A DNA stretch of 20,000 nt from Psammoneis japonica (GCA_008632985.1 QPGO01000278.1:57027-77026), one strand, 5' to 3'; counted from the first letter of the stretch, positions 1 to 20,000 are shown. Numbers and translations are program-made. The notes: a model not told the origin generated them from the letters alone.

Positions 1-631
1 GAAAGGCGACCTTTGTGAGCTTGTGGCAGAATTCACCATTTGCTTCACTGCCGTGGAAGCCTTGCACGCCAAGACGGATCCCACTGCACCCCCAGCCTGC
101 TCGGAACGCCAGAAGTCTCTCAAATTGCTGGAGGGTGCTCCTTCTCAAACACCGCCTGAATGAGATTGGGGACTCCGCTCCCCTGCCCCATGATCTCCAC
201 CTGGTCTCTCTTGTCACACAGATTGACCCCAGGCTCACTGCGAATGCCGACCCGATGGGATCTTTGAGTGCATTCCACGGCCGACTGTCTCGCGGCCGCC
301 AGTCCGTTTCGCCAGATCGACAGCACACCCCATTCCAGCCCCAGAAGGATCTCATTTGTGATGCATGCGGAGCGTGCGGCCACAGTCATTGTGGCTGCAC
401 TAACCTGGCCCGCACTGCTTTGCTGTTGGATTTCATTGAGGTGAACATGGAGAAAGCCAAGTCCATTGTTTCTAAATGGCAGTCTCACAACCAACGCCGC
501 AAGGACTCGCCACGCCCAACTGCCCGTCCATTTACGGCCGATGTCTCTCATGACATTGCCGACCATGTGATGGATGAAACGGCCTCGGACCTCCTGTTTG
601 AATCGGGCGCACCTCTGGATTTTTTTTGTAA
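1..631 (+). pseudogene. gag: copia gag C-terminal part with CCHC zinc knuckle
   Basis: CDACGACGHSHCGC (C-x2-C-x4-H-x4-C) at 357-398 in ORF 15..662, followed by GGATTTT and a T-run at the gag/pol junction. Confidence 0.75.
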
Positions 632-675
632 GCCAGCCGCATGCTCCATCATTGTGCGGTGAACGGCTCACCAAT
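617..675 (+). promoter_or_regulatory. Putative -1 ribosomal frameshift signal (G GAT TTT slippery site plus downstream stem-loops) at the gag/pol junction
   Basis: GGATTTTTTTT (617-627) followed by TAA (629-631). Potential stems CCGCAT/GTGCGG and GGTGA/TCACC follow. The present 8-T run does not give a -1 register to pol; 6 or 9 Ts would. Confidence 0.5.
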
Positions 676-3600
676 GGCTGCGGGGCAGATGATCGGGACG
701 ATTCATCGTCTCTGCCTTCCACTGACTCTCCGATCCCTCCTCCAATCTGTTGCTCATTCGAATCCAGCATCCCCTGCTTTAATCAGCTGCCGGACTGGAG
801 TCATTCAGGCCACCCTCCCAATCTCGCTAGCATGGATTCGGATTCTACGACGTTGCACTCGATGCGGGACGACGACTCACTTTCCCTGTCAGACGAGTTG
901 TGGGCTGCGGCGGTCGAGGATTTTGCCGAAGATCCTCAGGCTGCTCTTCACCACTTTGCCACCAAATTTGAGTCAATGGAGTCCGTCACTCCTCCCACCA
1001 TTGCGCTTTCCACAGCTCTGGCACTGGAACATGAAACCGCATCACTGCCCACCTTTCACCATGCCAGTGTTGGGAACCTCACTCCGGACTCTCCAGTGGA
1101 AGTGTCAGGACAGACGGACACAGGTGCCAATTGCAGCGCCACATCTCAACGACACCTGCTTGCCAACTGCCGCCGCTTTATGAATCCCAAACCCACGAGC
1201 ACAGCTTCTGCATCCAACACCACCCTCACGGCGCTGGGTGCAGGCATGTGCATCATCCGTGACATGGATGATCCCGAGCATGACATTCCGATGTTCTGCT
1301 GCCCTGGGCTGGGTGAAACCCTGATTTCGCCTGATCATCTGTGCAGAGCGTCCAAAGAACAATGCAGCCAATGCCATGCTTCGCACTTTCAGGATTCTGG
1401 TCATGGCATGCTCACGGTGACTGATCGGGACCGCTCCCTCATCCGGTCTTTTCCGATGGTGCGCGCTGACGGCTTGTGGTTCATGCCACGGCTCCACCCC
1501 GATGTGCCACCAACTGACGGACACACGGAACTGGAGGGTGCAATGCGCACGTTGCGGATGCATCCACCGACATCGAGAGACCTCGGACATGAGTTCGATG
1601 TGCCCAATCCTCCCGGCAAATGCGAACAGCTTGACTCGGATGCCCCATCATCCCCTGCACCCACGGACCCTGTCCCCGAGCATCCCAGTGTCAGCGAGGA
1701 CCCGCCCGATGTTCCCGCTCCCCACTTGTCCTCCCTTCAACGCATTGACACCAGCGAACTGTGGCACCACCGCCTGGGTCACCCTGGCATGCACCAACTG
1801 TCATGCCTCCGCCGTCATGCTACAGGCATCCCATCGTCCGCTGATGCCACACCTCATCCCCATTGATCATGCTCCGCATGCAACGATGCCTGGCACAGGT
1901 GTGCTCCCATGGGCACCCCACAGGATGACATGGACTTGGAGCCAGCGGCGTGTTTCCAGATGGACTGCAGGCACATGTGATGCGGAAAGGACGGCATTGA
2001 GCGCATTGTTCAATCACGGGACGGGTGCAATTCGCACCCACTGGTTGTGGATGCTAAAACTCGGCACACGTGGGTGTTCCTCACCCCGAGTGAGGACCCA
2101 CCAATTGAACTGGTGGACGCTTTCCTAGCTCGGCACAAGCGCACCAATGGTGCAAGCACGGTCAGGGCAGATCAAGGTGGAGAACTGGCCCACTCTGAGG
2201 AATTCCGGAAGGTTTGTTTGAAACACGACCATGTCGTGGAGCCCACCGGTGCGGACGCCCCATGGCAGAATGGCAGGGTTGAGATTTTGAATCGCACTTT
2301 TGGCGTCATGGTGCGAGCTCTGCCATGCTCATTGGGTCTCCCGGCCACCTGCTGGGCCGATGCCCTCACCCATGCGGTGTACCTCAAGAACCGGCTGTGG
2401 CACTCGGCCATCGATGTGACTCCGCACCAGGCATGGACGGGTGAGGTTCCAGACTTGTCACATCTCCGGGCATTTGGATCTCGCATGTGTGCTCGGCGTC
2501 CTGGGAAACTGGCTGCCAAATTGGACAAACATGCCTTCCACGGCATCTTTGTTGGACACTCGGCTGCGGACGGCAACGTGCGACATGTGGATGCCACATC
2601 CGGACGAGAGAAGTCTACTCCGCACGCCATGTGCAACGAGGCACACTTCACTCAACCGATTGGGCCTCCTGGTCCTCAGCTCTTGTTCGATCTTGGCATC
2701 CAACAGGTTGCACCTCCATCCCCGCCTCCCCACAAGCCAGCGGCCCCAGCACCACACCCCCCTTGTGCTCAACAAAGGCTTGTCTCCACCCCCCCCCCTG
2801 ATGAGCCTGATCCAGGGTTTGCCGCTTGGTGAAAACACGTTGTTTCCCAATGCCCAATGTCACGCGATGGCTGCTGCTTTTGCATCCAAGGACCCCGTCA
2901 CCCCCGAATCCGTTGCCAATGTTGCGATGTCCTTCGATCCGTGTGACGACTCTTTTGATGTACCTTTGCCCAGCCGCGGGTCTAGAAAACCAAGATTGGG
3001 TTTTGAGTTTGACTGTGACCCCCGCCGCCATCGACTGCGACTCCGTCANGTCACTGTCACCCTGGATCACAGGCGGCGCGGATCCCACGATGGCTATCCG
3101 AACTCCGACGCTCGTGCCTCATTGCAGTTAACACCCGGCCTGTCCACGATTTTGCTGACCTCGACCGCGTTTTAGCCGACATCAATCCGGATGCTCAGGA
3201 CGTTGTGCTCCGCTTTGCCCACGACCACCGGTCACCGACATTGGATGCTGCGGGATTGCCACAACTGTTTTTGGACCAGATCAACCACGTCCACCATCAG
3301 CTCAACTCCATGCATGACCCCACTCTTCCTTCATTGTACAAGCTCACACGCCGGAAACTCCAGACGCAGGAAGATTGGCCCGACTGGGAATCGGGTGAAT
3401 TCAAATGGCTCGACATGCACAACAGCCAAGGCATGTTTGGGGATCCCATTCCTGCCCCTCAGGAAGCCCGCGGTGTTCCCATGGGTGTGGTCACACTTGG
3501 TTAAGAACGATGCGGCCCGCACCAAGAAGGCCGGCGGAGCATGTGATGGCAGCCCCAGAGCTGGATTCGTCCAAACACTGGCCCAGACACATGCCGCGTC

Positions 3601-5070
3601 TGTTGAGCAACCTGGCACTCGCCTGTTCTTTGCTTTGGCAGCCCTTAAAAACAAACGGGTGTACGGCGCGGATGTCAGCAATGCCTTCGCTGAAGCTCCT
3701 CCTCCTGAGCAACGGCTCTGCATGAGAGTGGACAAAGTTTTTCAAAACTGGTGGACCAAACACCTGGGTCGCCCTCCCATCCCCGAGGGCTGTGCACTGC
3801 CTGTGCCACACGCGCTCTCCAGGGTCACCCCGAATCTCCCCGTTTGTGGAGCATGCATGTGGACAAGATCATCCGTGAACACCTCCATCTTGCCCCAACC
3901 ACCCATGAACCATGCACACACAGCGGCACAGTGAATGGCGAAGAGGTGCCATTTCTGCGTCAAGTCAATGATTTCGCCATTGCAATGGACTTGGACGCCA
4001 CATGTCAACACATGTGCGACATTGTGGATGACCATCTTGCCGGTGGCAAGATTGAACATCAGGGCTTGCTCACCCTGTTTCTTGGTTATGATGTGGAACA
4101 GACAAAAGACTGCATCCGGCTGCAAAGTGCCTCCTGCATAAAACGGATCTTGGCTGACCATGCTTTCCTGACTGACGACAACCTCGGCCCACCTCCCGCC
4201 ATCCCGATGCCCGGTGATGCCTCCCATTCCAAATCCCTTGATGAGGCTCCCACTCCGACTGACTCCAAGGCATCCAAGACCCTTCAACAACAACAGGGTT
4301 TCTCTCACCGGAAGGCAGTCAGTGCACTGACATGGGCCATGGTCACCACCTGCGTGGATCTCAGCTGCTCGATCACCAAGCTAAGTCAATTCAGCTCCAA
4401 TCCTGGACAACTGCACTGTGAAGGTGTGAAGCATTCTCTCCAGCACCCCAAGCATCACCCGGATTTCGGACTTACATGCTGGCGTCAACAACCCAACACG
4501 ATGCTCCCCCATGCTCCTCCTCCACCTCCGATGACTGCACCCCATGACCGAGTGCCGCTGCCCCCTCAGGCTTCATCTCCTGCCGAGCTCACCGGCTACA
4601 AGGACTCTGATTGGGCTGCTGACATCCGACACCGCCGCTCGATTGCCGGCATTGCGTTTTTCCCAGCGGGAGCTGCAATCGCATGGAAGACCAGAGTGCA
4701 ACCGACTGTGTCAACCTCTTCATCGGAAGCAGAGTTTGTCGCTGCATCGGACACCGGCAAAATGGCACTTCATCTCCGGTCTGTCATGGATGAACTGTCG
4801 GTCCCCCAGATGCAAGCTACATTGGCATGCAAAGACAATGGTGCATCCCGCAAGATGGCCGCCGCAAGCCAACCCACACGCCGCACCCGCCACATTGATG
4901 TCCGCCATTTCGCTCTTCAAGACTGGGTCGAACACGACTTAGTTCGACTGGATCGCATTGACACATCAGCAAATTGCAGCGACATGCTCACCAAGAATGT
5001 GGCGCGCATCTTGTTTTTCTGCCATTTGGATGCGTTGAGTGGACGTCACCATCCCCTCTGTGTGCCAGAC
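620..5070 (+). pseudogene. pol: copia pol (PR-IN-RT-RNaseH), disrupted
   Basis: DTGAN at 1117-1131 and WHHRLGH at 1762-1782. In-frame TGA at 1864-1866 and 1978-1980 (probably from CGA Arg). Frameshifts near the C10 run 2789-2798, the N at 3049, ~3468 and ~3817. RT catalytic motif reads QVNDF instead of QVDDF. Confidence 0.93.
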
Positions 5071-5146
5071 AGCAGTGACGACACACCACTGCACTGTTCA
5101 CTAGAAGAAAAGTGCACCCAGACTCACAGGGGTCACGATTCTCCCA

Positions 5147-5157
5147 GTGTGGGGGGG
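5147..5157 (+). promoter_or_regulatory. Polypurine tract of copia element 1
   Basis: AGTGTGGGGGG(G) about 90 bp after the end of RNase H, where a copia PPT is expected. Confidence 0.7.
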
Positions 5158-6009
5158 TCTCAGTGGATCGTGTCATTCCCACTTAAGATGCAGGGATCTC
5201 TGTCAATCAGTTGTGCAGCTGGTAAAAAATTTTAATCTGTGACAGCCAATTTTTTTTAACTGTAGAGACCTCTTTTTGTCCACAAGAAAAAACCTCAAGG
5301 ACACATCCACGGGGGTGAGGGCAGACATTTACGGACCCACAATTTTTTGGGACAATGACCGGATGCACTGCACCAAATGCACGCGCGTTCGCCAAATGAA
5401 ATTCCAGCAATGGGTCTGACTTTGTCAGTTCCCAAGACATCATAGAATGCACAAACGATGGTTGTGACCATGTGCGATCTTTAGCTTGTCGACTGTAGAT
5501 GTGTCCACAGCCAATCAAACGCCAATTGTCGGCATTTCCTGGAAAGTTGCAGCTCATCTGCCATGAGCAGCGCGATTTTGGCGAAAATTGGCGGCAATTT
5601 CAACCTGGCAACAGGGCATGGGCCGACAAGTGGCATTTGAAGCTTCAAACATGCAGCTCACACAGCAGTCTAACAGCCCTGATGAGGGTTTGTCGAACAC
5701 ATGAGTGTTTGGGGGTGTTCGGAGACGGGTCCAAATGGCACGGCGAAGTGTGGGAAAATCAGCACCCACAACCCATTCGCCTCACCCCCGTGGACACATC
5801 CTTGACTGTGTAAATGTCCCCCTCTTTTCCCATTTGGGATGTGCCTTCATTCACTGTGACTGCTGACAATCAATGTCATTGGCAATTTTCACATCATGTG
5901 ACAGTTTTGTTGTCCAAAGGGACAAACACAATGAATTTGGTCCACTCTTTTCAATCAACCAAGATGCATCGCTGTGGCTTTGTGACATCTGTTGTCAATC
6001 AATGCTGAG

Positions 6010-7380
6010 TCAATGCTGCAGTCCTGGTTGTCCCACATTTCCAACTTGCTTGTGCTGGAGTCTCATTTCCTTTGCTTCCGTCACTGTCTTCCTGGCTGGA
6101 GCTGCATCTTCCTCCTCATCTCCTTTGCCACCTGGCGTCTCCATTGCTTCATCGTCCTCCTCGTCATCACTAGAAAGTTCCGTTGTTGCTTGCGTTCTTG
6201 TCTCCGTTTTCGCTGGCTCTTGAGTGGTTCTTGCCATTTTTCCCTTTTCTTTGCTCTCCTTTTTCTTTTTGTCTGTGTGCCACGTGTTGAAATGCACACC
6301 CTGCTCTCTCGCCCTGTCTTCCTTTGCCTCCTTTGGCAATGTGTTGAAGCACTTCATTCCTTCATCCTTCCAAGAGTCACGCTGTTGCAACGGGTCTGTG
6401 AACAACGAAGCCTGTTTTTCCTCTTCGCTCCCTTCCTCATCTGCCTTCTGCATCTTCTTGTGCTCCCAAACCTTCCAGCAGTTTTCCATCATCAACAGGG
6501 CCAGTGCCTTGTCGCTTGCAGCAGCCAGATCTGTGGCCTTGGTGCTTCCGGACTCCACCATCCTCCTCCACATCGCAGTGCTCTTCATGAATTTTGGGAT
6601 GTTGTGGTGGAACCATGCGCGCGCCTCTCTGTTCTTTCACTTCTCAAACACAATTGTGTCCACCGTCCCATCCTCCCAAGTTGCAATGAACTCTTCCTCA
6701 ATGTTGGCTTCATCCTGTTTCCGCTTCCTTCCGGATTTCTTCTTCCTTGCTTCATTCTTTTTTTTTTTTGTCGTGGATTTCCTCTGCTTGTTTTTCTGCC
6801 ACAACAACTGCAGAAAAATGAGCAATTCATTGGCAGCACCACTTTCCATTTTCGCTTTGGAAATGCTCCACTCCTCCTCACTTGCCACTCATTGCACTCC
6901 TCATTGTCATCTGACACACGGTGTTTCTTTTTGCATTGATCGCATTGAGCACGCTTTTTTTAGCCCAGTCCTCCCATGATCCCGCCCATTCGCGCTTGCT
7001 GAACTTGCCATCTGCTGTGTTTTTGCGCATTGGCCATGACACCTTGCCACCACTCGCCATGTCCACCTTCACAAGGAATTTCGCCTTTGGGAACAGCTCT
7101 CTCCATGCCACCTCTTCCACCTCTCTCTTTAGCGACTGGTGATCCACAGCAGCCCCTGACTGCTGCAATGCTGCCGCAAGCCTCAGGCTGTTGGGCGCTC
7201 CCTCCGCCCCTGTGGCACCCATCTTCGCCACTTTCTTCCTCCTTCCCATTGCCCTCAACTCATTGTGTTGCCGTCAGTTGCTCCAGTCCGCAACTGTGCA
7301 GTGCAACAGCTCTTCCAAAGAAGATTGTCTTTTCAAAACTTCAAACCTGTTCCCAACACTTGATGGTGATGCCACCTCCC
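6010..7380 (-). pseudogene. Degenerate uncharacterised protein gene (SDxALALLxxENxW...W...WxxEGxxxFNxL...EDR motif, acidic tail), probably TE-associated
   Basis: ORF pieces 6878..7258, 6637..6888 and 6010..6588 read as charged globular protein. Probable 78-nt intron 6885-6808 (GCAAGT...CTGCAG), in-frame TGA at 6637 and an A12 run. The motif resembles repeat-associated hypothetical diatom proteins (recall only). Confidence 0.55.
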
Positions 7381-7603
7381 CATCCTTGTGTGTCGTCAAC
7401 TGTCAAATCTTTCCCAAATCATCACAATTAGTGACATTCATCATTTGACTTTGAAAACCACATCCTTGGTTATGTTCACTCCAGTTCGAGAGACTGATCA
7501 TTCAATTTAAATTGCATGAACAATTGTCAATGACAATTTTGACATGTGACTTGATCATTGCATTTGAAACTTTTAATTGTGCAGAATCATGCATGAACAT
7601 CAA

Positions 7604-8881
7604 TCACTGTGGGTCAGAAGTTTGCATCCATGCTCCATGCGCTCTTAACCCCCAACAGAAACTCGGCACCAAAAACGATCTCCAACCCAATTCTTCCATT
7701 GCATCCTCCTCTAAATGGACAATGACAAAATTGCTGCACCTCCCCTCACATGAGCAATCAGTCATGTGATCAAACACGCTGGTCGCCTCACTGACACAAC
7801 CAACAAAACGCTCAATGTGATGACGACGGATCTTTTCCTTTTTCATTTTTAGAAATTGTCTCCGTAGTCTCCTGTCCTTTTCATCGTTACAACAACCGTT
7901 GGACCCTCCATCCAAGCCCATTTTCTTGATGATTTCCAAGATCCAACCGTCAACCTTCCTTGGCGTCAATTCAAAGAACTCCAATTTGTCACACCGCCAC
8001 AACCTGCAAGGTGCGTCTCGCTCCACTTGTTGCTCGAACAAATGCACCAGCTTCCTTGCATCAAACACGACACCCTTTCTGTCCACAACCAGTTTGCACA
8101 CATCTCCTGAACCATTGTCCAATGCAAGCGGTCCGCAATTCCCACTTTGGTCCATTCCATGTGTGGGCAAGCTGATGGTTGATTCCCCACTCAACGAATC
8201 AACATCTTGCTTGTCAATCGCCAGACAAAGCTCGCCCTCCCTTGATCCAGCTGCAAACTCATCAAAGAGCTCATTGCTTGGGTCGTTCAACCAACCGCTT
8301 GCCGAGTGCTGTTCTCCCTGCCTCTCCAGGTGCGTTGCCAGCAAGCTCCAATGCTGACGTGTTTTGTGAGCATTCCTTGCTCGCTCGATGATCAAACTTG
8401 AATGCTCGTCCTTGTTGTGAATGGAGAACATGGCCTGTGCAGCGTGCATGTGTTCCCTCACTTCCCTGGTCCATCCATGCATGTTCTCATGCACCCGGCT
8501 CATGATGTTGCATTTGGTTTCCCACAGTTCCTTCCATTTCTCCTTGATGGTTCGTTCATCTCTTTCCATGTTTTTCAAATGAATCTCCCAAATTTCTTTG
8601 ACATCTGCGGGCTCTTTGCCCAAGTCACCGCACATGACCTTGCTGCAGGAGCCAATTGAACAATGCATGTCCATGCAGTCTCTTTGCAAGTGGGGGTTCT
8701 TGGATGGTTCCTTCCTCCCGGTGCCCAGCCATCGACCTGGCTCTTTTTTAGCTGCGCTGCAGTCTGCCTCCATCTTTTCTTCTTTTGCTTCTTGTTTCAT
8801 GCTCTCCACCTCAGCCAGTTTCCTCCAGCAGTCATCAGGCCAGCGTGCCAGCAACAAATTGTTCTGGACAATGGAAGCCAT
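7604..8881 (-). pseudogene. Degenerate uncharacterised protein gene (core of the 589-codon ORF 7604..9373)
   Basis: From MASIVQNN (ATG at 8881) the translation is K/E/W-rich and protein-like but has no Tyr. True ends are uncertain because TAA/TAG stops are eroded. Confidence 0.45.
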
Positions 8882-9660
8882 GGTGCAACTGCAGGGGCTG
8901 ACAAAAGCAATCTTGCAGACACACACAATCCTTTTGGCATGTGCGTTGCCAAGGGCTTGGATGACAAGTGCGTCTTGGCTGGAGAGTGGCACAGGAGCAC
9001 ATGTTCGGCTGGAGTCAAGGATCCACTGAAACAGTTCTTGGAATGTTTGATGGTTCATGTGGACAAGACGGGACAGACAGCTTCGATGGGATCTTCTTGC
9101 GGAGAACCCATGACAGTGACCTCTGCGCATGTTGCCTTCACACAGTGGCACGACAAAGCCAAGTGGAGAGTTCTTGGACACATTCCCAACCTTGAAAAAA
9201 TGTCTTCTTCCACAGCCAAACAGCAGTCCAATGCGCGCAAGTCGGAAAAGGGGCAAAGTCTTCGTGAGTGCCACAAGGTTTTGAAAACCACACTTCAGCC
9301 TTTGCTTGACATGATGGAATGGGGTGGCTTCAAATGTCATGTGCAACGAGGTGACGAGATCTGTCACATGCATTGTGTGAGGGATTTATCCTGTCCCGCA
9401 GTCTTAACTTTAGCTTTTTGATGAAATTAGAAAGAAAAATGCCAAATTTCCTTGGATTAATTTTGCTTTTAATTTTTTGCTTTTTTGGTTTTGGCTAAAT
9501 TTTGTGTGTTCATGTCATTTTTACATTGACATTTTGCTCGAAAAGGGAACAAAAACAGGCAAATTGCTCAACTCATTCTGGTGACATTGGCGCGAGCTCT
9601 GGCCAACGGGAGTGCGAGCTCCAAATGCCACGAGCTCCAAACCCGTGGCTGCTTTTTTGA

Positions 9661-9830
9661 TCGTGGCACAAAAAGCCAAAAACTGAAATCTCTGCCATGA
9701 ACCAAAATTCATCCAGTCCTGGCACAAGTGACCAAAAAATGAAATCCCTGCCACGAACCAAAATCTACCCAGTCGTGGCACAAAGGGCCGAAATCAGAAA
9801 TCTCTGCCACGAACCAAAATCCACCAAGTC
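9661..9830. repeat. Three tandem 56-bp units, each with internal inverted repeat TCGTGGCA...TGCCACGA
   Basis: Units start at 9661, 9717 and 9773; consensus ~TCGTGGCACAAnnnnCCAAAAAnnGAAATCTCTGCCACGAACCAAAATCCAnCCAG. Confidence 0.9.
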
Positions 9831-10360
9831 ACGATCCCTCGGTTGCTTCCCAAAGACAGACAGTTGAATCCAGTGCGCCATGGCCCAAGGCTCAAACAAG
9901 CAGGCAATTTGATTCACACCACAGTCCACAACCAAGCAAGAAGGATCGGCCATTCTCTGCAGACTCCCTCCAGATTGAATGAGTTCCTGCTTTGACAGAT
10001 GGGCTGGGGCAATGCCGAGGTGCTGTGGGGGGGGACGATGGTGTGCACTGTGCTCCGATTTTGTCGTTGCACCCACATCCATTGCCTGGGGACCTCTCGC
10101 ATGGTGATGAGGCACACTCACCCTTTGCTCTTGGCCTGACATCATCTCTGTTAATTCACCTGTGAAAGTTGGAGCACCAAGGCTGTGACAGCAGACACAT
10201 CACATCGCAGTGAAGTGTGAAGTGAGTGGGGCCATGTTTTGGAGCATTGGTCTTGAGGCGAGGTTCGGATCCAATCAATGCAGTCACACAGAAACGCATG
10301 CATTGATGAAATTTCCCGCCAAAAATTGTCAAACATTGGCGTGTCGCGTCATGTCCAAAC

Positions 10361-12422
10361 ATGAATGTTTTGCAACATCAACGTCTGCATTTTCAGCTGT
10401 TTCTGGGAGCTCTCAAGACTGAATCCAAGGTCATGATGCATTCAAAGATGGATGTCTGGATGACACTTCCCGCCCAACTGCTCACACTTTGGCTTTTTTG
10501 GCGCCAAGAGTGCCACAAGAAGAGCACTTTTACAAAGAGGGAGGTGACAATGGAGGTGGCAGCTCTGGACGATGTTTTGAGTGCACTGGTCTGCAACGCA
10601 CAGCTGCCAATGAGAGTTGGTGTGTCACGGCGACGTGTTGCAGCCTTTGAATGTCACAAAGGGCGTGACAAAAACAACCTTTTGTCTGCATGCATGCTGC
10701 ATTGTGAATTCACAGCAGAGTGGTTCATCGCAACCATCAGGCAGGAGGCCAGGGGTTCAAAACCCTAAGTGGGAGTTGTCTGCAGCAACGTTGATCACTG
10801 TCGAACGCGTAAAACTCTGTGCAGTTCTGTGTGTTCCTTCGTGCATGCCCACACTGTTCCGCCAAAACCGTGCAGTGTCAGTGCACATTGGTGAAGAGCC
10901 GTGTGGACTCGTGACACATGTGGAGGAGTGCAACACACAGCTGCCAATGAGAGCCAATGCATCACGGCGACGTGTTGCAGCCTTTAAATGTCACAAAGGG
11001 CGTGACAAAAACAACCTTTTGTCTGCATGCATGCTGCAGGTCTGCTCACATGCCAGGAGAATCATTGATCTGATTCTAGAAGGGGGGTGGAAGAGCGGAG
11101 ATGTCATCAGGTCTTGGCAAGAGTTGAAGGCGTCCATCCAGGCCACTCATGTCAACTCAAAGGACAAAGCCGCGGTCACCTCAGACTGTGTTCCAGCAGC
11201 TTGCCAAGATGTGCATCAAAATCTGCATGGTGGACCCACACCAGAGGTGTGCGCGCTGTCGTCATGTCCTCTGGCGCGTGCTGATGCAACAGTCCAGATG
11301 GAGGCACAGTTGGTCAAGGACAAGCTGAACAAGGACATCATGGTTGTGCCCCTGGCAGACTGGACGAAGCAAGAATGGGTGGAGCTGCAAGAGTGTTACA
11401 AAAGGCTTTGGCGTCAGGTCGCTGACCTGATCAGAGCCAGGGATTCAGAGCACAAAATCAACAGTGCTTGGCTGATGACATGTTCATGACCCGGCACCGC
11501 CAAGCAACCATGAGGATGGCGGTGAACTCATTGCTGGCACCTGTGAGGAACGACATGCGCTTGACAGTGCAAGAAGGCAAGGCTGTGATCTGTGTGGGCA
11601 AGAAAGCTGTGCAAGAATGTTTGTAAGTTGGCAAGTTTCTCCTCCTCAACCTTGCGATGCGGCACGTCTCACCTTCTCTCCCACTGCCAAATTTCCTTCC
11701 CCTTTGTTTCAGGAAAGATTGCAACAGCATCGGTGCCCAGATGCTCTTGCCAACCGAGGATGGCATCTTGCTTAAAAAGGGGATGGATGGCCTTGCCAAG
11801 GCATTGCAGGAGGAGAGCAGTGAGGAGGGCAGTGAGGAGGACTTGACATTGACCGCAGATGCCACTGCCTTCTGTGAAGCATTTGGCCCCCTTCTTGCAA
11901 AGGGCGGTGATGGAGAAGAAGAAGCAGAAGATGAAGAAGCAGGGGGGGGGCTGGGACATGCCAGAGTTTTGCTTGGTTGAGTTCCACAAGTGCTTCAGCC
12001 AATTGCTGAGAGACTGGGCACAGACCCTCAAGGATTCTCTTGGTCTTGGCTCTGTTCTGGAAAGCATGGTGAAGTTGCCCAGTGCGGTCAGGGAAAAGGG
12101 CTCTCCCAAGAAATTGAGAGCGCAACCATGGACAGAAGCACAAACAAAAGAGCTGAAAACAATGGTGTCGTGCATGTCCAAAAAGAGAGTCTCCAAGCAC
12201 ATCAAAAGGAATGAAATGTGGAACACAATCCTCCAGAACTCTACGATGCTGAGGGACACCAACAGAACACCTGCCCAACTCAGGGAGAAGCACAAGCAGG
12301 TTGTTTGCATGGATGAATGGCTGAAAGTAGAGGGCCAGAAACAGCTCATGCTGAAATGGACAATTCAAGAAGAGCAAAAGAAAATGGTTGAGAAGAAGAA
12401 GAGAGAGAGGTGGTCGGGGTAG
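10361..12422 (+). pseudogene. Paralog A: unknown N-terminal region plus C-terminal TRF/telobox-type Myb domain
   Basis: Myb-like PWTEAQTKELK...WNTILQNS..L...NRTPAQLREKHKQV (12126-12302). GT-AG intron 11623-11712 (90 nt) removes an in-frame TAA. Disrupted by a 337-bp insertion, a frameshift at ~11450 and a G9 run at 11942-11950. Confidence 0.7.
10592..11038 (+). repeat. 110-bp direct repeat (10592-10701 and 10929-11038) flanking 227 bp of unrelated DNA
   Basis: Ungapped alignment at offset 337; both copies encode CNxQLPMRxxxSRRRVAAFxCHKGRDKNNLLSACML. Confidence 0.92.
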
Positions 12423-12571
12423 AGTCCAAGAGATTGTGTCATCTTAAATGGCGTCAATGCATGTAAAAATGTTTTTTCAAAACCAGTTCAATCAAAATTT
12501 GATGACGTCCGAAGCAGCCACAGAGTGATTGCATTTTAGACTCACTCTAAAGTGTTTGTAGAGTGTTGCTT

Positions 12572-14381
12572 CTACAGTTTTGATCCACGTGCACCATGCA
12601 GTGAGCCGGCACATTGCACCGGCAGTGCAAAGCCACCTGAGAAATGCTCTGCGGCAGCTGGCATTCTGCCTTCCTTTTTTTGTGTCAAACTTCTGTTCAA
12701 GTTCCGCATTTTGTCTTTCAAATCAATGTTTGTCCTGTTGTTCCTTCTGAGCAGAGGAGAGTTTTCCAGAGTGGTCCTCCATCTGCGTTTGTTTTGAGGG
12801 TCGCTGTGGCAAACCGCCTGGTGGAGCATCTTCAACTCATTGATTTCCGCTGCACTCCAAGGTCTCCTGTCACGTCTCTGTGGTTTGCCTGGAGCTTTGT
12901 GGGCTTTGTTGGATGTTTCTTTTCTGCAATCAGATTTGAAGAAAGATCCTTGGCCGTGTGTCTCTTCTGCTTCAGATGCACAAAGTTGCAACAGATGCAT
13001 CATGTCATGTTGAAAACTCTCCAAGCACAAATCCGGCACAGCATCTGCATGTTGGCTCCCATCATGACCAGGGCCATTGCAGTCTCTTTGCAGATTCACA
13101 GGACCAAAGCATTTCTGAAAAGAGCTTGCCTCTGCTGTCACTGTGGCTCTTCTGTTCATGCTTGATGCCGCTGCTTTGAACAAGCTGCTCAAACCACTCT
13201 TCACTTCTTCTTGAAGCTCCGGAGACATGAGCTTGATGTTGCAAAAGTCCGCACTGCAGACAGAACAATGTCGGGAACCATCATTGAGCAACAAAATTCC
13301 AACCTGCGGGGGCATTTGGGAGTGGGATCACTCACATGCATTCTTTTGCTGCCCCTCTGGGAAGAGTCATCACTGTGGTGCTCTTGGCATTGGAGTGAAG
13401 TCTCCTTGAATTGCGTTGCCTGGTGACACTAATTGCGCTCCTCACGGCCGCAAGATCGCAATAAATCTGCAGTTGCACACCCAATCGATCACACTCCAAT
13501 TGCATCTCCAATGCTCCACCCGATGCACCACCCTCACTTGCTGGCATCGTGCCTCTAATCATCTTCATCATGTCCTTCAATTCTCCTCCCAATGCCATCC
13601 AATCGTCCCTGCTTCAATCACACAGAGACTTCACCGAGATCTTGCTCTCACCCGGCAAACTGGCAAATGTCTTCTTGAGTGAATTGTCCATGCAAGGGCC
13701 CAGAGAAAAGGGAGTGTGCTGAAACCTCCTGTGCGGATTCTCCAGACAAACCTGGGTGCACATTCTTGCCATCTTGCTGTGCAAATGGGAAGGTCCACAT
13801 GCCCTCACATCACTCAATCGATTTGTCTCATGATGCTGCAAGGCATCAAGCACAAGTTGAAGATCCTTCCATTTCTCTGCAATGCCTTCAATGTCTCCCT
13901 TCTCCACAGAAGCCAGCACATCAAGACAGTGCGCACAGACAACATCGTCCAGCTTCTTGGACCAACTGTCAATGGGAGGCTTGTAGAAGATGGTGCTCTC
14001 CATGGCTTCTCTCTGACAAGGCTTTTTTTGTGGTGCTGCAAGCAGTTGGCGGGCAAACTAACAATGCATGAAGCTCACAGGCTCAAGTTCAAGAAATGGG
14101 CTGGCATGTCGCCTCAACGGAAAAATCTTTAACATCCACAACTTAGGACAATTTTGTGCACGCCGATTTGCAACCTTTTTCGCGAACATTTGGTCCATCA
14201 TCTGTCCATCTGAACGTGGATTTTCGTGACCCTTCAGGCCTTTTTCATCACGAGGTCCTGCTCTAGCGGCAATGAAGTCTCCCAGGATGCAAGGAGCTCT
14301 GCTGCTGGCTGCCAGCTGGCTAGAGTGGACAGCAGGGAGTGTCTCACAAGATCCCCAGAGCTGTTTGCTCCTTTCTTGCAC
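12572..14381 (-). pseudogene. Paralog B: unknown N-terminal region plus C-terminal TRF/telobox-type Myb domain
   Basis: PWSAAEINELK...WRTTLENSPLLRRNNRTNIDLKDKMRNL (12862-12698) matches the telobox RTxVDLKDKWRNL. ORFs 14058..14381, 13614..14003 and 13332..13598 share one frame, and an 82-nt GTGAGT...CTGCAG intron (13335-13254) joins them in frame to 12572..13315. TGA at 13616-13614 aligns with Trp in paralog A. Confidence 0.8.
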
Positions 14382-14585
14382 ACCCTCGCCATCCGTGTTA
14401 AATCAATTTGTTGTCACTGGGTGGCTTTTAATCGCAAACGCAGCCTCCAAACTGTGCTCAATCTGAGCATCATCATTTGCGAACAGGCAGCAAGCAGACC
14501 AGCTTCTAACATTTGCCCTTCTAAATTGAAGAATGGGACGACGACCCTCAAGATGAGCAGGAGACATTGAGATGAGCAGGGGACA

Positions 14586-14947
14586 TTAAGACGCACACTC
14601 CTCTAACTTTCTCTTGGCCCCTCTTTCTTGTGCAGGCTTTTTCTTTTGAACCAAACAGGGGCTGTGCGTCAAGAACCAAAAAACAAAGCTCGCGTCGCTG
14701 TGGCGACCCGCCAACACACGCGGCCACAACGAATCGGGCCTTTTGTCTTTGCTGAGCCGCAACAAGTGACGTCCAGCCTTGTTCATTCGGCAAAAGCAAT
14801 CCATCACCCGTTGAGTCTCCCCAATTGGCACTGTGACGCGCTTCAAAGAGCACAAGGCTTCTCCACTTAGGTGTGATTTCTAGCTGAGGGTTCCCACGCA
14901 AATTAAGTTTTTCAAGATTGGGCAGCGCCAAAACCTCTCGCGGAATT
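14586..14947 (-). pseudogene. LRR-protein gene, 3' fragment (after the LTR element insertion)
   Basis: IPREVLALPNLEKLNLRGNPQL (LRR), a frameshift at ~14860, then MDCFCRMNKAGRHLL...SLWPRVL...FVFWFL, resembling the LNxAGRxLL..LWPxVL C-terminus of diatom LRR-family proteins. TAA at 14588-14586. Confidence 0.7.
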
Positions 14948-15223
14948 TGACAGAAATTGAAGGCAAATGGCAAGAATTCAAACAACAACTCCTCACTGCT
15001 GTCTAAACAGCAGATGAGTCTTCGCTCAGAGACCGTCACAGGAGCCAAAAGACGTGCAAGTTGGCACAATCGGGCTGCTGTCATTGTTCTTCTGAGCCTT
15101 GTGGCTCGAAAGCAAACTGCATCGCGCGCGAACGCATGGAACTAAAGCACACAAAACTGTGCGCGGTGAACTAAACAGCGCGCGACATTTCATGCACACC
15201 TGAATCCTGTTCAAATCCTGTCA
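14948..15223 (-). repeat. 3' LTR (276 bp)
   Basis: TGACAGAAATTGAA...TTCAAATCCTGTCA terminal inverted repeat; ungapped match to 17398-17673 with 27 substitutions. Confidence 0.93.
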
Positions 15224-15234
15224 CTCCCCAGTTT
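15224..15234 (-). promoter_or_regulatory. Polypurine tract of the LTR element
   Basis: Minus-strand AAACTGGGGAG directly abuts TGACA of the 3' LTR. Confidence 0.75.
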
Positions 15235-15289
15235 GCTTGAAGAGTCACAGAAACAGATTCGACTTTGGATTGACTGAAGAACCTTGGAG

Positions 15290-15740
15290 TCAAAGCACCA
15301 AAACATGAGGAGACAAGAAAGGATCAAGATCCTGGAGCAACGCTGCATTCTCCAAGTGGGTCATCTTGAGATGAGCTGCGTCTCCCCAATTGTAGATGCC
15401 GTTGTGCTTTTCAAAGCTCAAGGCACACTTGGGATCTTGTGGGATTCCACATCTGCACTTGCAATGGAAGGAGCAAAGCTTGGTCTGGTTGACAATGTTG
15501 AACGGCGGGGCAACATCGCAGGACAATGCAAACAAGTTGACATCGCCTTCACTTCCTGAGCGAAGGTCGTAAAGACTGATGGCCGTCTGTTGGTTCTTGG
15601 AACGGTCGCCACACTGGGTTGCTGCTAGAAAAACAGAGCAGTGCTCGTGCAGGGTGGCATGGCGTTTGCACGACTCAGGGAACAGAGCAAGCATGAGTTC
15701 AAAGGCACAAGCAGTGGTCTTGTGTTCCACCAATCCGATT
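15290..15740 (-). pseudogene. pol: Remnant of copia pol (segment just upstream of the RT core)
   Basis: HCKCRCGIPQDPKCALSFEKHNGIYNWGDAAHLKMTHLENAALLQDL resembles the YKYGxxIPxxxxxAxxxDxxNGxxxWxDAxxxEMxxL..DL motif preceding RT in diatom copia elements (recall). Confidence 0.55.
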
Positions 15741-16088
15741 GCAAGCTCAGCTGCATCTCCTGAGAGACTGATCCAATTGGAAAAACGAGTCTCAAGGTGC
15801 AAGCCTTTGGGGATCGGATTGGAGCAAGACATCTTGTGGTGCAAGGCTGCAGATGTCTGACTGGGGCAACCAATCCCGTGCTGCAAGACTTCTGGGATCC
15901 ATTGCGCAGGCCCGCACTTCGAGACCAGTTGGGACACTCCACCCATGGCTTCCAAAGCTGCAGTCTTTGCACCCCGCGAACCACCTCCTTTTCCCATCAT
16001 TGAATCTGTTCACAACAGTTCAACCGGTTCATCAGATGGGGAGTTCAGGACATCCAAGCAGCTTCATTGTCTTTGGATCCTCCAAGCA

Positions 16089-16237
16089 TCGTGCCTTGAG
16101 ACTGGGCCTCCTGGTTGGATGCCCCAAGTCTCGTGCCTCGAGACCAGGCCTCCTGACTGGATGCCCCAAGTCTCGCACCTCGAGACTGAGCCTCCTGATT
16201 GGATGCCCCAAGTCTCGTGCCTTGAGACCAGGCCTCC
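16089..16237 (+). repeat. 42-bp minisatellite, ~3.5 copies up to the N gap
   Basis: Unit TCGTGCCTYGAGACYRGGCCTCCTGAYTGGATGCCCCAAGTC with exact 42-bp period. Confidence 0.95.
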
Positions 16238-16301
16238 NNNNNNNNNNNNNNNNNNNNNNNNNNNNNNNNNNNNNNNNNNNNNNNNNNNNNNNNNNNNNNN
16301 N
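16238..16301. other. Assembly gap (64 N)
   Basis: Run of N between the two oppositely oriented minisatellite arrays. Confidence 0.99.
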
Positions 16302-16326
16302 CTTGCCAGTCTTGTGACACGAGCCT

Positions 16327-16495
16327 CGGGGATCCAATCAGGAGGCCAAGTCTTGAGGTGCGAGACTTGGAGGATCCAATCAGGGGGCCCAGTCTCGAGG
16401 TGCAAGACTTGGGACATCCAACCAGGAGACCTGGTCTCGCGGTACGAGACTTGGGGCATCCAATCAGGAGGCCCAGTCTCGAGGTGCAAGACTTG
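16327..16495 (-). repeat. Same 42-bp minisatellite, ~4 copies, inverted relative to 16089-16237
   Basis: Reverse-complement units; both arrays translate as ETGPPDWMPQVSxL on opposite strands. Confidence 0.95.
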
Positions 16496-17386
16496 TTGGG
16501 ACGCAAAGGTAGACTTGAAACTTGGGTGAGAATGGGCTTGACTTGAAATGGACTTGACTTGAAATCTTGAACTATCCCAAAAAATCAGAAGTCGCCGGGG
16601 TGTGCTGTCCCGTTCGTTGTCAAGTGCTAAACTTCCCATCCGGTCTGCAGAGTTGTGCCGGCACGTCCGAACCCGCAGCTGGTGGCACTTTGGGTTGCTT
16701 GCGAGCGGAGCAGCGGGTTGTGAACCCCTGCAGGTGAGCTGGCCAGAGGTGGACAAGACCCCCGAACCGTTCTCATTTTACATCGGTTGGATTTCCCGAT
16801 CAGGCTGGCCAGTTGACGCAGGCGTCAGGCACTGTGGACGAACGAACAAACGCGGGAAAACACCCTCGCCCCAACGTGGGCTGTAATCACGGCTGCTTGC
16901 TCTCACAGTCGTCCTCGTGGACCTGGCAGAACTGCAGAGCACCAGCAGTCTGGGGTAGATCAGGTGCAATGGGCTCGGCGTGCTTGTAGAGTGGCAGCAA
17001 AGCGGTGGTCCAAAGAGTGGGTTCAAGTCCTTGGCCGCGAAGATGTGTGTGTGCACATGTCTTCAGCGACAAAGATCCTTGAACATGTGGGGTTCTTGAC
17101 CGTTAACCGTTGAACGGGTGTGTCAAGGGATGAGGATCAAGGACAGACTTGGATGTGACCGTTGAATGTGTGTCTTCAGCGACAAAAGGCAGCACAATCA
17201 ATCCAGATGTCCAGCGGCAAGGAGACTTGACGGTGACGTTAACTTCCTGCCGATGCCTGGTGTTGAATGCGCGCAGACTTGCCGATGTACGTAGAATGTA
17301 CACGGAGGTCCACGCAGAATTGAAATGGCGTCGTCGGCAAATCAACGACGACAATGGCGGTTGCTCAATGGGTTGACAATGAGCAA

Positions 17387-17397
17387 GACTGTTAATC
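17387..17397 (-). promoter_or_regulatory. Putative primer-binding site complementary to the tRNA-Asn(GTT) anticodon arm
   Basis: Minus-strand GATTAACAGTC directly after the 5' LTR; its complement GA-CT-GTT-AA-TC has the layout of tRNA positions 30-40 with anticodon GTT. Confidence 0.6.
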
Positions 17398-17673
17398 TGA
17401 CAGAAATTGAAGGCAAATGGCAAGAATTCAAACAATGACTCCTTGCTGCTGTCTAAATGGCAGATGAGTCTCCGCTCAGAGACCGTCACAGGAGCCAAAA
17501 GACGTGTGAGTCGGCACAATCGGGCCACTGTCATCATTCTTGTGAGCCTTGTGGCTCGAAAGCAAACTGCATCGCGTGCGAACGCGCGGAACTAAAGCAC
17601 ACAAAACTGTGCGCGGCAAACTGAACAGAGCGCGACATTTCACGCGCACCCAAATCCTGCTCAAATCCTGTCA
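17398..17673 (-). repeat. 5' LTR (276 bp)
   Basis: Partner of 14948-15223 at offset 2450. Confidence 0.93.
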
Positions 17674-17800
17674 GAATTCCAGTCAATTGTGTGCAATTGA
17701 ACAAATGCTGACATGCTGTCACGAACACAGGCAGTTTATGTGCTGTTGGCGATTGGTCCACTGTCGCTTGTTTGGTGGCCCCAGTGGCACAACATCTCAC
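17674..17800 (-). pseudogene. LRR-protein gene, 5' fragment (before the LTR element insertion)
   Basis: Removing 14948-17673 plus one GAATT gives the in-frame read QHLFNCTQLTGIPREVLALPNLEKLNLRGNP. Upstream extent unclear. Confidence 0.6.
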
Positions 17801-18417
17801 AATTCCAGAGCCTGTCGATGCTGTTCAACACTCTGTCTTGTCTTGCACCCAATTCTTGGCCATCATGGCAGCATTCATTCACTTCATCAGAGCCAATGCG
17901 CTGTGATGTTCATCGCCTGGAACGGGCATTGCGAACGGCACGACGGCATTGTTGTGATCTGTCAATTTTTGCGGCAAGCGCCCATGGTTGCTCGCGTGAT
18001 CGCTGAGTCCTTTGTGTGTGTCAATGTTCATGAACATGAACGACATGCTCTTGGAGACCAGAGCTGTGATCCGTTAGACATGACATTAGTGTGCGGAATG
18101 TTTGATCACATGGATGGAACATGTTGGCTAAGACATGCAAACATCCGTGATGAAGACAACACAATGATTTGTGCACTGAGGTCTGTCATTTGATCACATG
18201 CATTTCATCAATCAAAATGCATTGTCAAATTGTTCAGACACTGTGCATGTGGATGCATGTCTGTTGGACATCATTGCTTGGGAGCAACACCACCTGCTCG
18301 CGGGTTCGCCAAGCAGCAACCGCCAAATCGGCACAAGAACCACACATTTTTCTCACTTTCCTCCACTCACACAAGTGGATGCTCACGCGTCGAAACGCGG
18401 GTGACTGCTGACACACC

Positions 18418-19841
18418 ATGGCCGCTGCTGCAGCCTTTGCCGCCTGTCTCACGCATTGTGGACACAATGCACAGACGCGCACCTGCACAGCCCGCCAAGG
18501 CTTCACTGCGATCGAGGACCTGGAACAGGTCCCTTTGACGGAAATCACCGATGTGACCAAGGGTGTTATGAAGAGCGTGGACACCGCCGCCAACCCCCAA
18601 ATCCGCTTTCCACACCTGGCGAATCGCAAGCTCAAGGCACTGCCTGTGTGGATTGACTGCCGCAGAGCCCGGAACCAAGAGCCGACCGCTGCTCTCTTCA
18701 CTGGCGATGTTGTTGGAACATGGACGGCACGTCTGACGGAACTGGAGCAATTCAAGTCCGCCGACTTGGACGACGAATTGGCTGCCAAAACGGCCGTGGA
18801 GCTCAAGAACCCACACGACTGGCCTGCCTTCCAAGAGCTGCTGGAGACCAAACTACGTCACCACTGCAGTGCCGTTGCCAGAGTGCCCCTCATTTGCCCA
18901 GTTGGGGAACATGAAGATGTCACTGCCGAAATGTTGGCTGCTGCCTGCACTGCCATTGACGAGGACCTCACTGCCACTGCCTGCCTTGCAGGAGCACAGT
19001 GTGCGCAGGACAGGCAACGTCTGCATGATCTCCTGAAGAAGCCAGTGACAGGGGGGCCTGGATGGGCTTTTGTCAAACCTTCCAATCGCAATCGCGATGG
19101 TCGCACTGCTTTCTTTGCACTTGAGAGGCAGGCGGAAGGATCAGCTGCCGCCACTGCCCAAAAGAACCGTGCTTGTGCACAGATTGCTGCGGCAAAGCAC
19201 ACCGGACGGGGTCGATTTACATTTGACCAGTGCGCTCAGCGTCATCAAAAGGCTCACAACGACTTGTCTGAGCTTGATGAACCGGTGGCCGAGACCAAGA
19301 AGGTCTCTGACTTTCTGAAGGGCATCTCCGACCCTGGGTTGGAAACTGGCAAGAGCGCAGTGGATGGCGACCCAACGAAGCTAGTGGATTTTGAGGCATG
19401 CCAGCAGTGTGTGTGAAAACTCTGGTCAAGAATGCCAAGAACCGCAATGCTGACGCTTGCAGGGTCGCATCCATCCAACGCCGCAACAATCGGCGCACCA
19501 ACCCTGGTGGGAAGCACCAACCTAAAAAGGACAAGCCCAGGATCCGGGCAGGCCATTGTCCTGTTGAAGAGTGGAGTGCTCTTGACGGCCCCAAACGAGA
19601 GCAAGTCCAAAAGCTCCACAACGCCAAGAAGGCCGAAAAGAAACGCAAAGCTGCTGCTGCATCCTCGGAGGCTGAGTCGGTCGATGCCAAAACTCGCGCT
19701 GTGAAGAAAGTGGCCATTGCCGAGCCTGCTGCTCAACCTGCTGATGCACCGAAAGACTCCGACGAGCCTGACAAACCTGCCGCCAATGCAGGCACCCAGT
19801 TCGGACGCAGTGCACACAAGAAACCTCAGAATGAGGAATGA
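18418..19841 (+). pseudogene. gag: gag of copia element 2, one frameshift at the (GT)n run ~19407-19415
   Basis: Motifs GPGWAF...DGRTAFFAL...EG, FTFDQxxQRHQKAHNDL, EPVAETKKVSDFLKGISDP, DFEACQQ and C-terminal NAGTQFGRSAH. No Tyr in the 332-aa ORF. Confidence 0.8.
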
Positions 19842-20000
19842 ATGGTTGCGCCAGCACCAAAAGGCATGGAACTGAATGTCGCTAAACCTGCTGGCACCAT
19901 TTGTTTGTCTGGGCAATTCTTGAAGGATGTGCACATCTCTTTGTCATCTGCTGGAAATTCAGATGACAAAGCCACCACTGATTTGGACTCGCATGCTGAC
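19842..20000 (+). pseudogene. pol: Start of pol (aspartic protease) of copia element 2, partial
   Basis: 53 open codons from ATG 19842 ending TTDLDSHAD, matching the LDSHADT protease active-site motif. Confidence 0.75.

Follow-up and report, generated by a model that had tools for sequence, protein, structure and literature searches.

The 20,000-nt stretch of DNA analyzed here (QPGO01000278.1:57027-77026; hereafter the window, always meaning the whole stretch) carries a degenerate Ty1/copia retrotransposon among other repeats and is nearly devoid of the dinucleotide TpA. The question it raises is what kind of process removes a single dinucleotide from an entire block of DNA, and on which molecule that process acts. 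Our answer, which we regard as very probable, is site-by-site hypermutation of the DNA itself, from TA to TG or CA and close to saturation, over a block of silenced repeats. The window is a saturated instance of a TpA hypermutation known from one 2026 report.

TpA Depletion Across the Window

Base composition predicts 1130 TpA in the window, and 131 were observed (observed/expected 0.12). CpA (1964/1304 = 1.51) and TpG (1879/1172 = 1.60) are enriched, and the other A/T dinucleotides lie near or over expectation (AA 1.24, TT 1.18, AT 0.95), leaving TA as the only one of them that is depleted. All 20 one-kb bins are affected, with 1-14 TpA per bin vs. 41-72 expected and an observed/expected ratio (Rho_TpA) of 0.02-0.22; the highest Rho_TpA in any 300 bp of the window is 0.39. 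Residual TpA sites are mildly clumped (variance/mean 1.3-1.6). As a feature, the depletion is described by a single line:

1..20000, unstranded: TpA-depleted, CpA/TpG-enriched domain that spans the entire window, with no border visible

For a baseline we used 80 loci from metagenomes that carry related copia elements. Rho_TpA in these loci ranges from 0.61 to 0.99 (mean 0.77, standard deviation [SD] 0.07, n = 80), which places the window about 9 SD lower, and their combined ratio for CpA and TpG (Rho_CA+TG) is 1.22 (SD 0.07, n = 80); none of the 80 loci is like the window. An earlier note on this DNA, made from the sequence without database searches, had described TpA as almost absent, and its hand counts proved exact: 29 TpA in 1-5100, none in 1181-1820, and one (at 8749) in 7890-9386. 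The four open reading frames (ORFs) that it named as free of tyrosine contain none, and all ten peptide strings it quoted were found in the translations.

The loss extends to stop codons. Counts on the + strand are 59 for TAA, 39 for TAG, and 396 for TGA, which is nearly the sole remaining stop. The window contains 37 ORFs of at least 150 aa, many of them overlapping on both strands; their lengths are inflated because TAA and TAG stops have been erased, and they are no evidence of genes. Gene finders would over-call long false ORFs in regions of this kind.

Direction of Change at Conserved Tyrosine Columns

Three unrelated families of repeat-encoded proteins, on both strands, have relatives with which the change can be polarized:

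715..5232, + strand: degenerate Ty1/copia polyprotein (gag, protease, integrase, reverse transcriptase [RT], RNase H, i.e., gag-PR-IN-RT-RNase H) in several frames, found by tblastn with 43 intact relatives
7607..9385, - strand: 593-codon tyrosine-free ORF, a mid-copy repeat of an unnamed family, with three remote relatives
18412..19413, + strand: 334-codon tyrosine-free ORF, a high-copy repeat of a conserved unnamed family, with nine relatives

The test was restricted to alignment columns in which the relatives conserve Tyr, 45 columns in total. Pooled, these hold 1 Tyr, 16 His, 17 Cys, and 11 other residues in the window. The copia element contributes 25 columns (1 Tyr, 10 His, 7 Cys, 4 Phe, 2 Trp, 1 Thr), the ORF at 7607-9385 contributes 11 Tyr-majority columns (none kept; 5 His, 3 Cys), and the ORF at 18412-19413 contributes nine (none kept; 7 Cys, 1 His, 1 Phe). 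The same picture came from an independent alignment of the copia RT/RNase H region, with 0 of 12 Tyr kept and 5 His and 5 Cys in their place. Other conserved residues of the copia alignment are kept at 41-92%, and Tyr makes up 2.3-5.9% of 88 of the 89 copia-RT relatives found.

One nucleotide change suffices to explain 44 of the 74 conserved columns at which the window differs in the RT/RNase H alignment. Fourteen of these changes are TA>TG/CA, six are CG>TG/CA, four are other A>G/T>C, one is another G>A/C>T, and 19 are transversions. All five Ile>Val changes lie directly after a T. Because the relatives keep Tyr while the window has His and Cys within single frames, ancestral TA has gone to TG or CA about equally and on both strands; as read from these alignments, the direction of change is TA>TG/CA. 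The earlier note had proposed T:A>C:G change at TpA on both strands and had expected a polarized spectrum to be enriched there. Both proposals are borne out, the first by the near-equal His and Cys within single frames on both strands and by copies and units that resolved independently (below), the second by 14 TpA changes vs. four A>G/T>C changes outside TpA.

Action in Place on DNA

Repeated and low-copy segments within the window allow the process to be followed copy by copy:

9339..10005, unstranded: low-copy segment with a 56-nt tandem repeat of 3 units (9664-9830), depth 64
10592..11038, + strand: direct repeat pair D4 (10592-10701 and 10929-11038), 110 nt, 93% identical, of a very high-copy family with summed depth 56,998
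11340..14007, unstranded: low-copy stretch, equally TpA-depleted, depth 40-75
14944..15223, + strand: D1 copy 1, a 280-nt high-copy repeat, 90% identical to copy 2
16073..16495, unstranded: inverted pair of 42-nt tandem-repeat arrays, at 16073-16237 and 16328-16495, on either side of a 64-N gap (16238-16301)
17394..17673, + strand: D1 copy 2, summed depth up to 129,013

Of the 280 positions of D1, 28 differ between its two copies; 16 of these 28 make up eight CA<->TG swaps, and one further difference is TA vs. TG. Among the eight differences between the D4 copies are one TG/CA swap, one TG/TA site, and a TTGG/CCAA block. Across seven units of the 42-nt array, column 10 reads TG twice, CA four times, and TA once, and column 21 reads TG four times, CA twice, and TT once. 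The 56-nt tandem units likewise show TG/CA and CA/TA differences at homologous positions. Since tandem units are not made through RNA and yet differ as TG, CA, or TA, the process acted on DNA, in place, after duplication, and independently at each site.

Copy number, estimated as summed contig depth, is 40-75 over 9339-10005 and 11340-14007 (low copy), and ranges from hundreds to about 2200 over the copia element and the 7.6-9.4 kb ORF. TA observed/expected is 0.12 alike in low-copy (25 vs. 217 expected), mid-copy, and high-copy bins, i.e., from depth 40-75 to >3000. The depletion being equal across copy classes, the target is therefore the region rather than repeats as such.

Along the window, TG and CA outcomes show no clustering (runs z = +1.98), in contrast to other complementary dinucleotide pairs, which are clustered. 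Strand-coordinated (processive) action was considered and rejected: the fraction of outcome pairs of the same type is 0.48-0.51 at all distances to 320 nt, and the order of His and Cys along the copia element is without runs. As a separate observation, the D1 swaps are ordered, with four CA followed by four TG in one copy and the mirror image in the other (chance 2/70); this order is unexplained and is not general.

Dependence on Flanking Bases

Survival was calculated as TA/(TA+TG) for the adenines of both strands, according to the base 3' of the adenine. It is 0.012 for T, 0.044 for C, 0.081 for G, and 0.119 for A. ATA and TAT are nearly extinct, with 3 and 8 left in the window. Survival of 4-mers was also calculated against the baseline of the relatives, which come from other organisms and make the values crude, good for ranking only:

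0.00: ATAT and ATAC/GTAT
0.02-0.05: other ATA/TAT contexts
0.11-0.15: GTAC, GTAA/TTAC, and CTAC/GTAG
0.29: CTAG
0.37: TTAA
0.42: CTAA/TTAG

The base before TpA also governs the outcome. At the 33 polarized Tyr>His/Cys sites, where Cys reports TG and His reports CA, a preceding C gave nine Cys and no His, a preceding A gave seven His and one Cys, a preceding G seven His and five Cys, and a preceding T two of each. Fisher's test gives p = 9e-4 for C vs. the rest and p = 4e-4 for C vs. A. The outcome fits a model in which the two adenines of the palindrome compete and the one with a 3' pyrimidine (TAY = RTA) prevails.

Precedent in Bigelowiella natans

The earlier note knew of no named pathway for such a change. 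That has been overtaken by a 2026 preprint in which TpA>TpG/CpA hypermutation is reported de novo: mutation-accumulation lines of Bigelowiella natans undergo A:T>G:C hypermutation restricted to TpA in integrated viral DNA (Mettrop et al., bioRxiv 10.64898/2026.01.13.699255). According to its figures, 231 of 302 nuclear mutations fell in integrated regions of giant-virus (nucleocytoplasmic large DNA virus, NCLDV; single-copy and silent) and virophage origin; 230 of these 231 were A>G or T>C, all 230 lay on TpA, and they arose in some lines only, at a de novo rate of about 1e-7 to 1e-6 per site per generation (bioRxiv 10.64898/2026.01.13.699255). The same source describes 124 clusters of TpA-poor, CpA+TpG-rich windows in the B. 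natans genome, an enrichment of RT and DDE domains in TpA-poor coding sequences, and an ADAT2 homolog proposed as the agent, as a candidate only (bioRxiv 10.64898/2026.01.13.699255). Our full-text literature searches returned no other description of this signature.

We applied the cluster rule of the preprint, as it is given there (a Rho_TpA cut-off plus Rho_CA+TG of at least 1.52), to the window. All 20 bins fall within the TpA cut-off; 11 of them, among these the run 4001-9000, also reach the Rho_CA+TG value. The likeness to what the preprint describes covers the change itself (A>G/T>C at TpA, with TpG and CpA as products on either strand), its regional and copy-number-independent nature (the NCLDV region being single-copy), and its setting, as the B. 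natans clusters carry RT/DDE domains and many unannotated ORFs and the window carries copia plus repeat genes. The differences are of degree, substrate, and evidence: Rho_TpA is 0.12 in the window, near saturation, vs. 0.45 reported for the B. natans NCLDV region; the window's substrate is copia, other repeats, and spacer DNA; and de novo events were seen in the B. natans lines, whereas the window is known from its end state. On this signature, we infer that the process in the window would be the one acting in the B. natans mutation-accumulation lines.

The main text of the preprint contains none of the words "trinucleotide," "copia," "LTR" (long terminal repeat), or "retrotransposon," and neither the flank rule nor per-copy independent outcomes appear in it. 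Relative to that text, the window adds a retrotransposon and whole-domain substrate, independent resolution in each copy, and the flank rule. From figures in the preprint (211 mutations, 6169 TpA, 3132 generations) we calculate about 1e-5 mutations per TpA per generation. At that rate the window's depletion would correspond to about 2e5 generations, an order-of-magnitude value that applies only if process and rate match those of B. natans.

Comparison with Other Known Systems

Repeat-induced point mutation (RIP), known from Neurospora and other fungi, is C>T mutation mainly at CpA; it creates TpA and stop codons, lowers GC content, and needs duplicated sequence. The window resembles RIP in that the changes are made in place at the DNA level, on both strands, and as transitions only, in transposon-rich DNA whose coding capacity is destroyed. 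It differs in direction, as TpA is destroyed (0.12), CpA is raised (1.51), TAA and TAG stops are erased, GC rises, and the C>T change that defines RIP is not what is seen. It differs also in target, since low-copy DNA (depth 40-75), which is not duplicated, has the same value of 0.12. The earlier note's description of a "reverse-RIP" that inactivates repeats was thus overstated, there being no copy-number dependence among low-, mid-, and high-copy bins (0.12 in each). Its exclusion of RIP, of 5-methylcytosine (5mC) decay, and of one-strand RNA editing holds.

Decay of 5mC at CpG is alike in that a palindromic dinucleotide becomes TG or CA with an outcome that is independent in each copy. However, it removes CG rather than TA, and cannot explain the 999 of 1130 TpA that were lost. 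Hyper-editing by ADAR and mutation by APOBEC are alike in that deaminases leave clustered transitions of a single type, which disable mobile elements; those enzymes act on RNA or cDNA and on one strand, whereas the window is changed on both strands within one frame and in DNA that is not retro-copied. ADAR editing is limited to the sense strand and to retro-copied sequence, whereas the copia element has 10 His and 7 Cys and the tandem units and spacer are affected as well.

The remaining likeness is one of mechanism only. TadA and ADAT2-ADAT3 deaminate adenine to inosine after a 5' U or T (U33-A34 of the tRNA); DNA is a substrate of evolved TadA, as used in adenine base editors, and the loop of the bacterial substrate has the sequence UAC, which resembles the TAY preference of the window. 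In eukaryotic substrates of ADAT2/3, the base that follows A34 is, to our knowledge, A, C, or G and never U, whereas no context in the window is more depleted than TAT.

Public Contigs Related to the Window

The stretch was located in one DNA study (run X1, Logan contigs), in which the same TA-poor sequence is present; no RNA run was listed as containing it. Between the window and the paralogous contigs of run X1 there are 579 transition and 126 transversion differences, with the four transition types in balance, as CA<->TG swaps predict. For the low-copy part (9413-14576), eight pieces are listed, with 1-22 differences per 235-1272 nt. Run X1 is another isolate, haplotype, or near-identical paralog, and not the assembled clone.

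A second source lies outside the window. P0088, encoded on a public contig of 2212 nt, is a divergent copia RT that shares 34% identity with that of the window and contains 0.9% Tyr. Its residues at 12 Tyr-consensus columns are 1 Tyr, 7 Cys, 1 His, and 3 Phe, and its outcome differs from the window's at four of six shared His/Cys sites. Because the outcomes differ at those four sites, P0088 is an independently hypermutated copy from elsewhere in public data; its sequence hints that more cases exist.

Proposed Mechanism and Alternatives

The reading that we favor, hypermutation of DNA at TpA, would proceed as follows. The block would be silenced repeat DNA, made up of copia, two or more further genes encoded by repeats, short repeats of high copy number, tandem arrays, and spacer of low copy number, and the process would mark a region flagged as foreign or repetitive, not repeats as such. 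At each TpA, one of the two base pairs would undergo an A:T>G:C transition, with TG or CA as the result; each TpA is resolved separately in each copy, and a site once mutated would no longer be a target. Flanking bases set both the rate and the choice of base pair, with preference for an adenine that has a 3' pyrimidine (TAY/RTA). The consequences are the loss of Tyr codons, many changes at Ile, Leu, and Val, the erasure of TA-containing signals, and the removal, not creation, of TAA and TAG stops. The agent may be a deaminase, for example an ADAT2/TadA-like protein, that turns adenine in DNA into inosine and is recruited to chromatin flagged as foreign. We favor adenine deamination by such an enzyme because enzymes of this kind read A after U or T. 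This enzyme step, taken by itself, is a guess that we would as readily believe as doubt.

Several points weigh against this account. The process is read back from its end state, with no de novo event in the window, and its identity with the B. natans process is judged from the signature. Adenine deamination and chemistry on the paired thymine produce the same pair changes, which sequence cannot separate. Gains of 4-mers fail to balance losses in AT-rich contexts, a comparison made with the baseline from other organisms. The T-flank sites (2 His, 2 Cys; n = 4) depart from the hierarchy predicted by survival, and the palindromic contexts ATAT and GTAC have 9 His vs. 2 Cys in the first two families, where 1:1 is expected; the latter excess is unexplained and not significant. 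Lastly, run X1 is the sole holder of the stretch that was found and may be related to the source sample, so that its independent support against an artifact is weak.

The alternative that fares best keeps the footprint and changes the chemistry, although we consider it unlikely. The thymine of TpA would be oxidized by a JBP/TET-like dioxygenase to 5-hydroxymethyl- or 5-formyluracil and mispair with G, or a methylated adenine at the palindromic TpA would be deaminated, as 5mC is at CpG. 5-Formyluracil mispairs with G, and hydroxymethyluracil in dinoflagellates favors TpA. TpA is palindromic, and its loss mirrors CpG decay with independent TG and CA outcomes in each copy; moreover, the damaged base is indistinguishable from sequence, and the flank rule reads RTA or TAY equally well. 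Against the thymine version, removal of oxidized thymine by a glycosylase should add transversions, whereas transitions make up 230 of 231 mutations in the B. natans spectrum reported in the preprint.

Editing of RNA offers a second route to A>G change at adenines after U. Retrotransposon RNA would undergo ADAR-like A-to-I editing prior to reverse transcription, and the mutations would be fixed at insertion. Copia is a retroelement, and the preprint notes a 5' U preference of ADARs (bioRxiv 10.64898/2026.01.13.699255). The evidence above contradicts this: within the copia frame, His (sense T>C) and Cys (sense A>G) stand at 10:7; tandem units and low-copy spacer, which are not reverse-transcribed, are equally affected; and copies resolved their sites independently after duplication. 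ADARs also prefer a 3' G, whereas adenines in TAG context are among the less affected. We hold this explanation to be very improbable as compared with mutation of the DNA itself.

To the same slight extent we credit an artifact of sequencing, base-calling, or assembly, e.g., a modified base at TpA that is misread as C or G. What speaks for it is that the stretch is known as contigs from only one run, which may be tied to the source sample. The separately assembled Logan contigs, however, are TA-poor too, five of the eight listed low-copy pieces having 1-7 differences per 235-617 nt, base calls are clean and consistent in thousands of paralogous copies, and P0088, from an independent source, has the same Tyr>Cys/His pattern; de novo calls of such mutations in B. 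natans were, according to the preprint, made from Illumina data. Least probable, to the point of being negligible, is a genome-wide composition trait, selection that disfavors TpA/UpA, or GC-biased gene conversion between repeat copies: a mild shortage of TpA is common to most genomes (mean 0.77 in the relatives here), but keeping 1 of 45 conserved Tyr would be intolerable for a functional gene set, the other A/T dinucleotides are undepleted, counter to a general AT>GC conversion, and low-copy DNA is as depleted as the repeats.

Significance of a Saturated TpA-Poor Domain

RIP and CpG decay are the textbook cases of self-mutation of repeats, both toward AT-richness. A defense specific to TpA would run opposite to them, and there is one report of it so far. 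The window displays the end state, in which about 88% of expected TpA are gone and all but one of the conserved Tyr codons of three families are lost. The TAY/RTA preference, the CTA to CTG rule, and the sparing of TTAA and CTAA together give a testable footprint for candidate deaminases or thymine-modifying enzymes.

We know of no organism that uses a DNA-acting adenine deaminase, or a thymine-modifying enzyme, against its own repeats. What can be said about range depends on the source of the window. Should the locus be among the 124 published clusters, it is already known; if it comes from a second organism and not from B. natans, the range of the phenomenon is extended. Tentatively, and with more doubt than conviction, we suggest that the window derives from an organism other than B. 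natans, that TpA hypermutation may be a wider eukaryotic genome defense that saturates transposon-rich domains, and that TAY/RTA may be the footprint of a natural DNA adenine deaminase or thymine-modifying enzyme.

Other Features of the Window

The copia element was recovered by tblastn as four pieces, at 715-2808 (frame 1), 3052-3456 (frame 1), 3440-3817 (frame 2), and 3733-5055 (frame 1), collinear with the 43 intact relatives and in the order gag-PR-IN-RT-RNase H. Relatives reach down to E = 3.9e-120, and most of those listed carry PF07727. The element's own domain matches are weak, with gag_pre-integrs at about 1711-1815, SH3_retrovirus at about 2437-2643, and RVT_2 at E = 0.13. A direct-repeat search found no LTR pair bracketing the element inside the window; the 5' LTR may precede base 1. 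No second copia pol, and no further copia fragment outside 973-5232, was found in the window with these relatives. One point of the earlier note, which spoke of copia copies in the plural, is amended: a single copia pol can be recognized with these relatives (about 715-5232, + strand), and the other tyrosine-free ORFs belong to different, unnamed families.

None of the nearest protein relatives exceeds about 64% identity. A Pfam search of 111 ORFs of at least 80 aa gave only the two weak retroelement matches, and a threshold of E = 10 added sub-threshold matches only; Rfam gave no family match in the window, and no deaminase gene was found within it. The three remote relatives of the ORF at 7607-9385 (E 9e-18 to 4e-12, none with a Pfam domain) came from an exhaustive search, a word-based search having given none; summed contig depth over this ORF is about 1200-2200. 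The nine relatives of the ORF at 18412-19413 match at E 1e-68 to 2e-34 and contain 2.2-4.4% Tyr, and the Protein Atlas places this ORF in unnamed clusters only. One of the nine, whose cluster comprises 37 sequences, is located on an 848-kb contig. Neither this family nor that of the ORF at 7607-9385 corresponds to a Pfam family. The possibility that the ORF at 18412-19413 is an N-terminal part of copia was rejected, as it has no similarity to copia's N-terminal parts.

One further tyrosine-free ORF lies in the low-copy stretch:

12575..13327, - strand: tyrosine-free ORF with a weak Myb/SANT-like match (Myb_DNA-bind_4, PF13837, E = 0.031, under the Pfam cut-off)

This ORF may come from the host and have been caught up in the mutated block, or it may belong to an element.

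CpG is depleted as well (817/1352 = 0.60 overall, 0.35-0.36 in the low-copy stretch, strongest in 11001-14000). Together with the six polarized CG>TG/CA changes, this is a second, weaker decay in the same block, of the type typical of cytosine methylation.

Short, very high-copy repeats occupy 10673-11339, 14675-15341, and 16009-18009, with a summed depth of 36,000-129,000. Within the last of these, each array at 16073-16495 has about four 42-nt units, and the two arms are 85% complementary, forming a long palindrome-like structure at the assembly gap.

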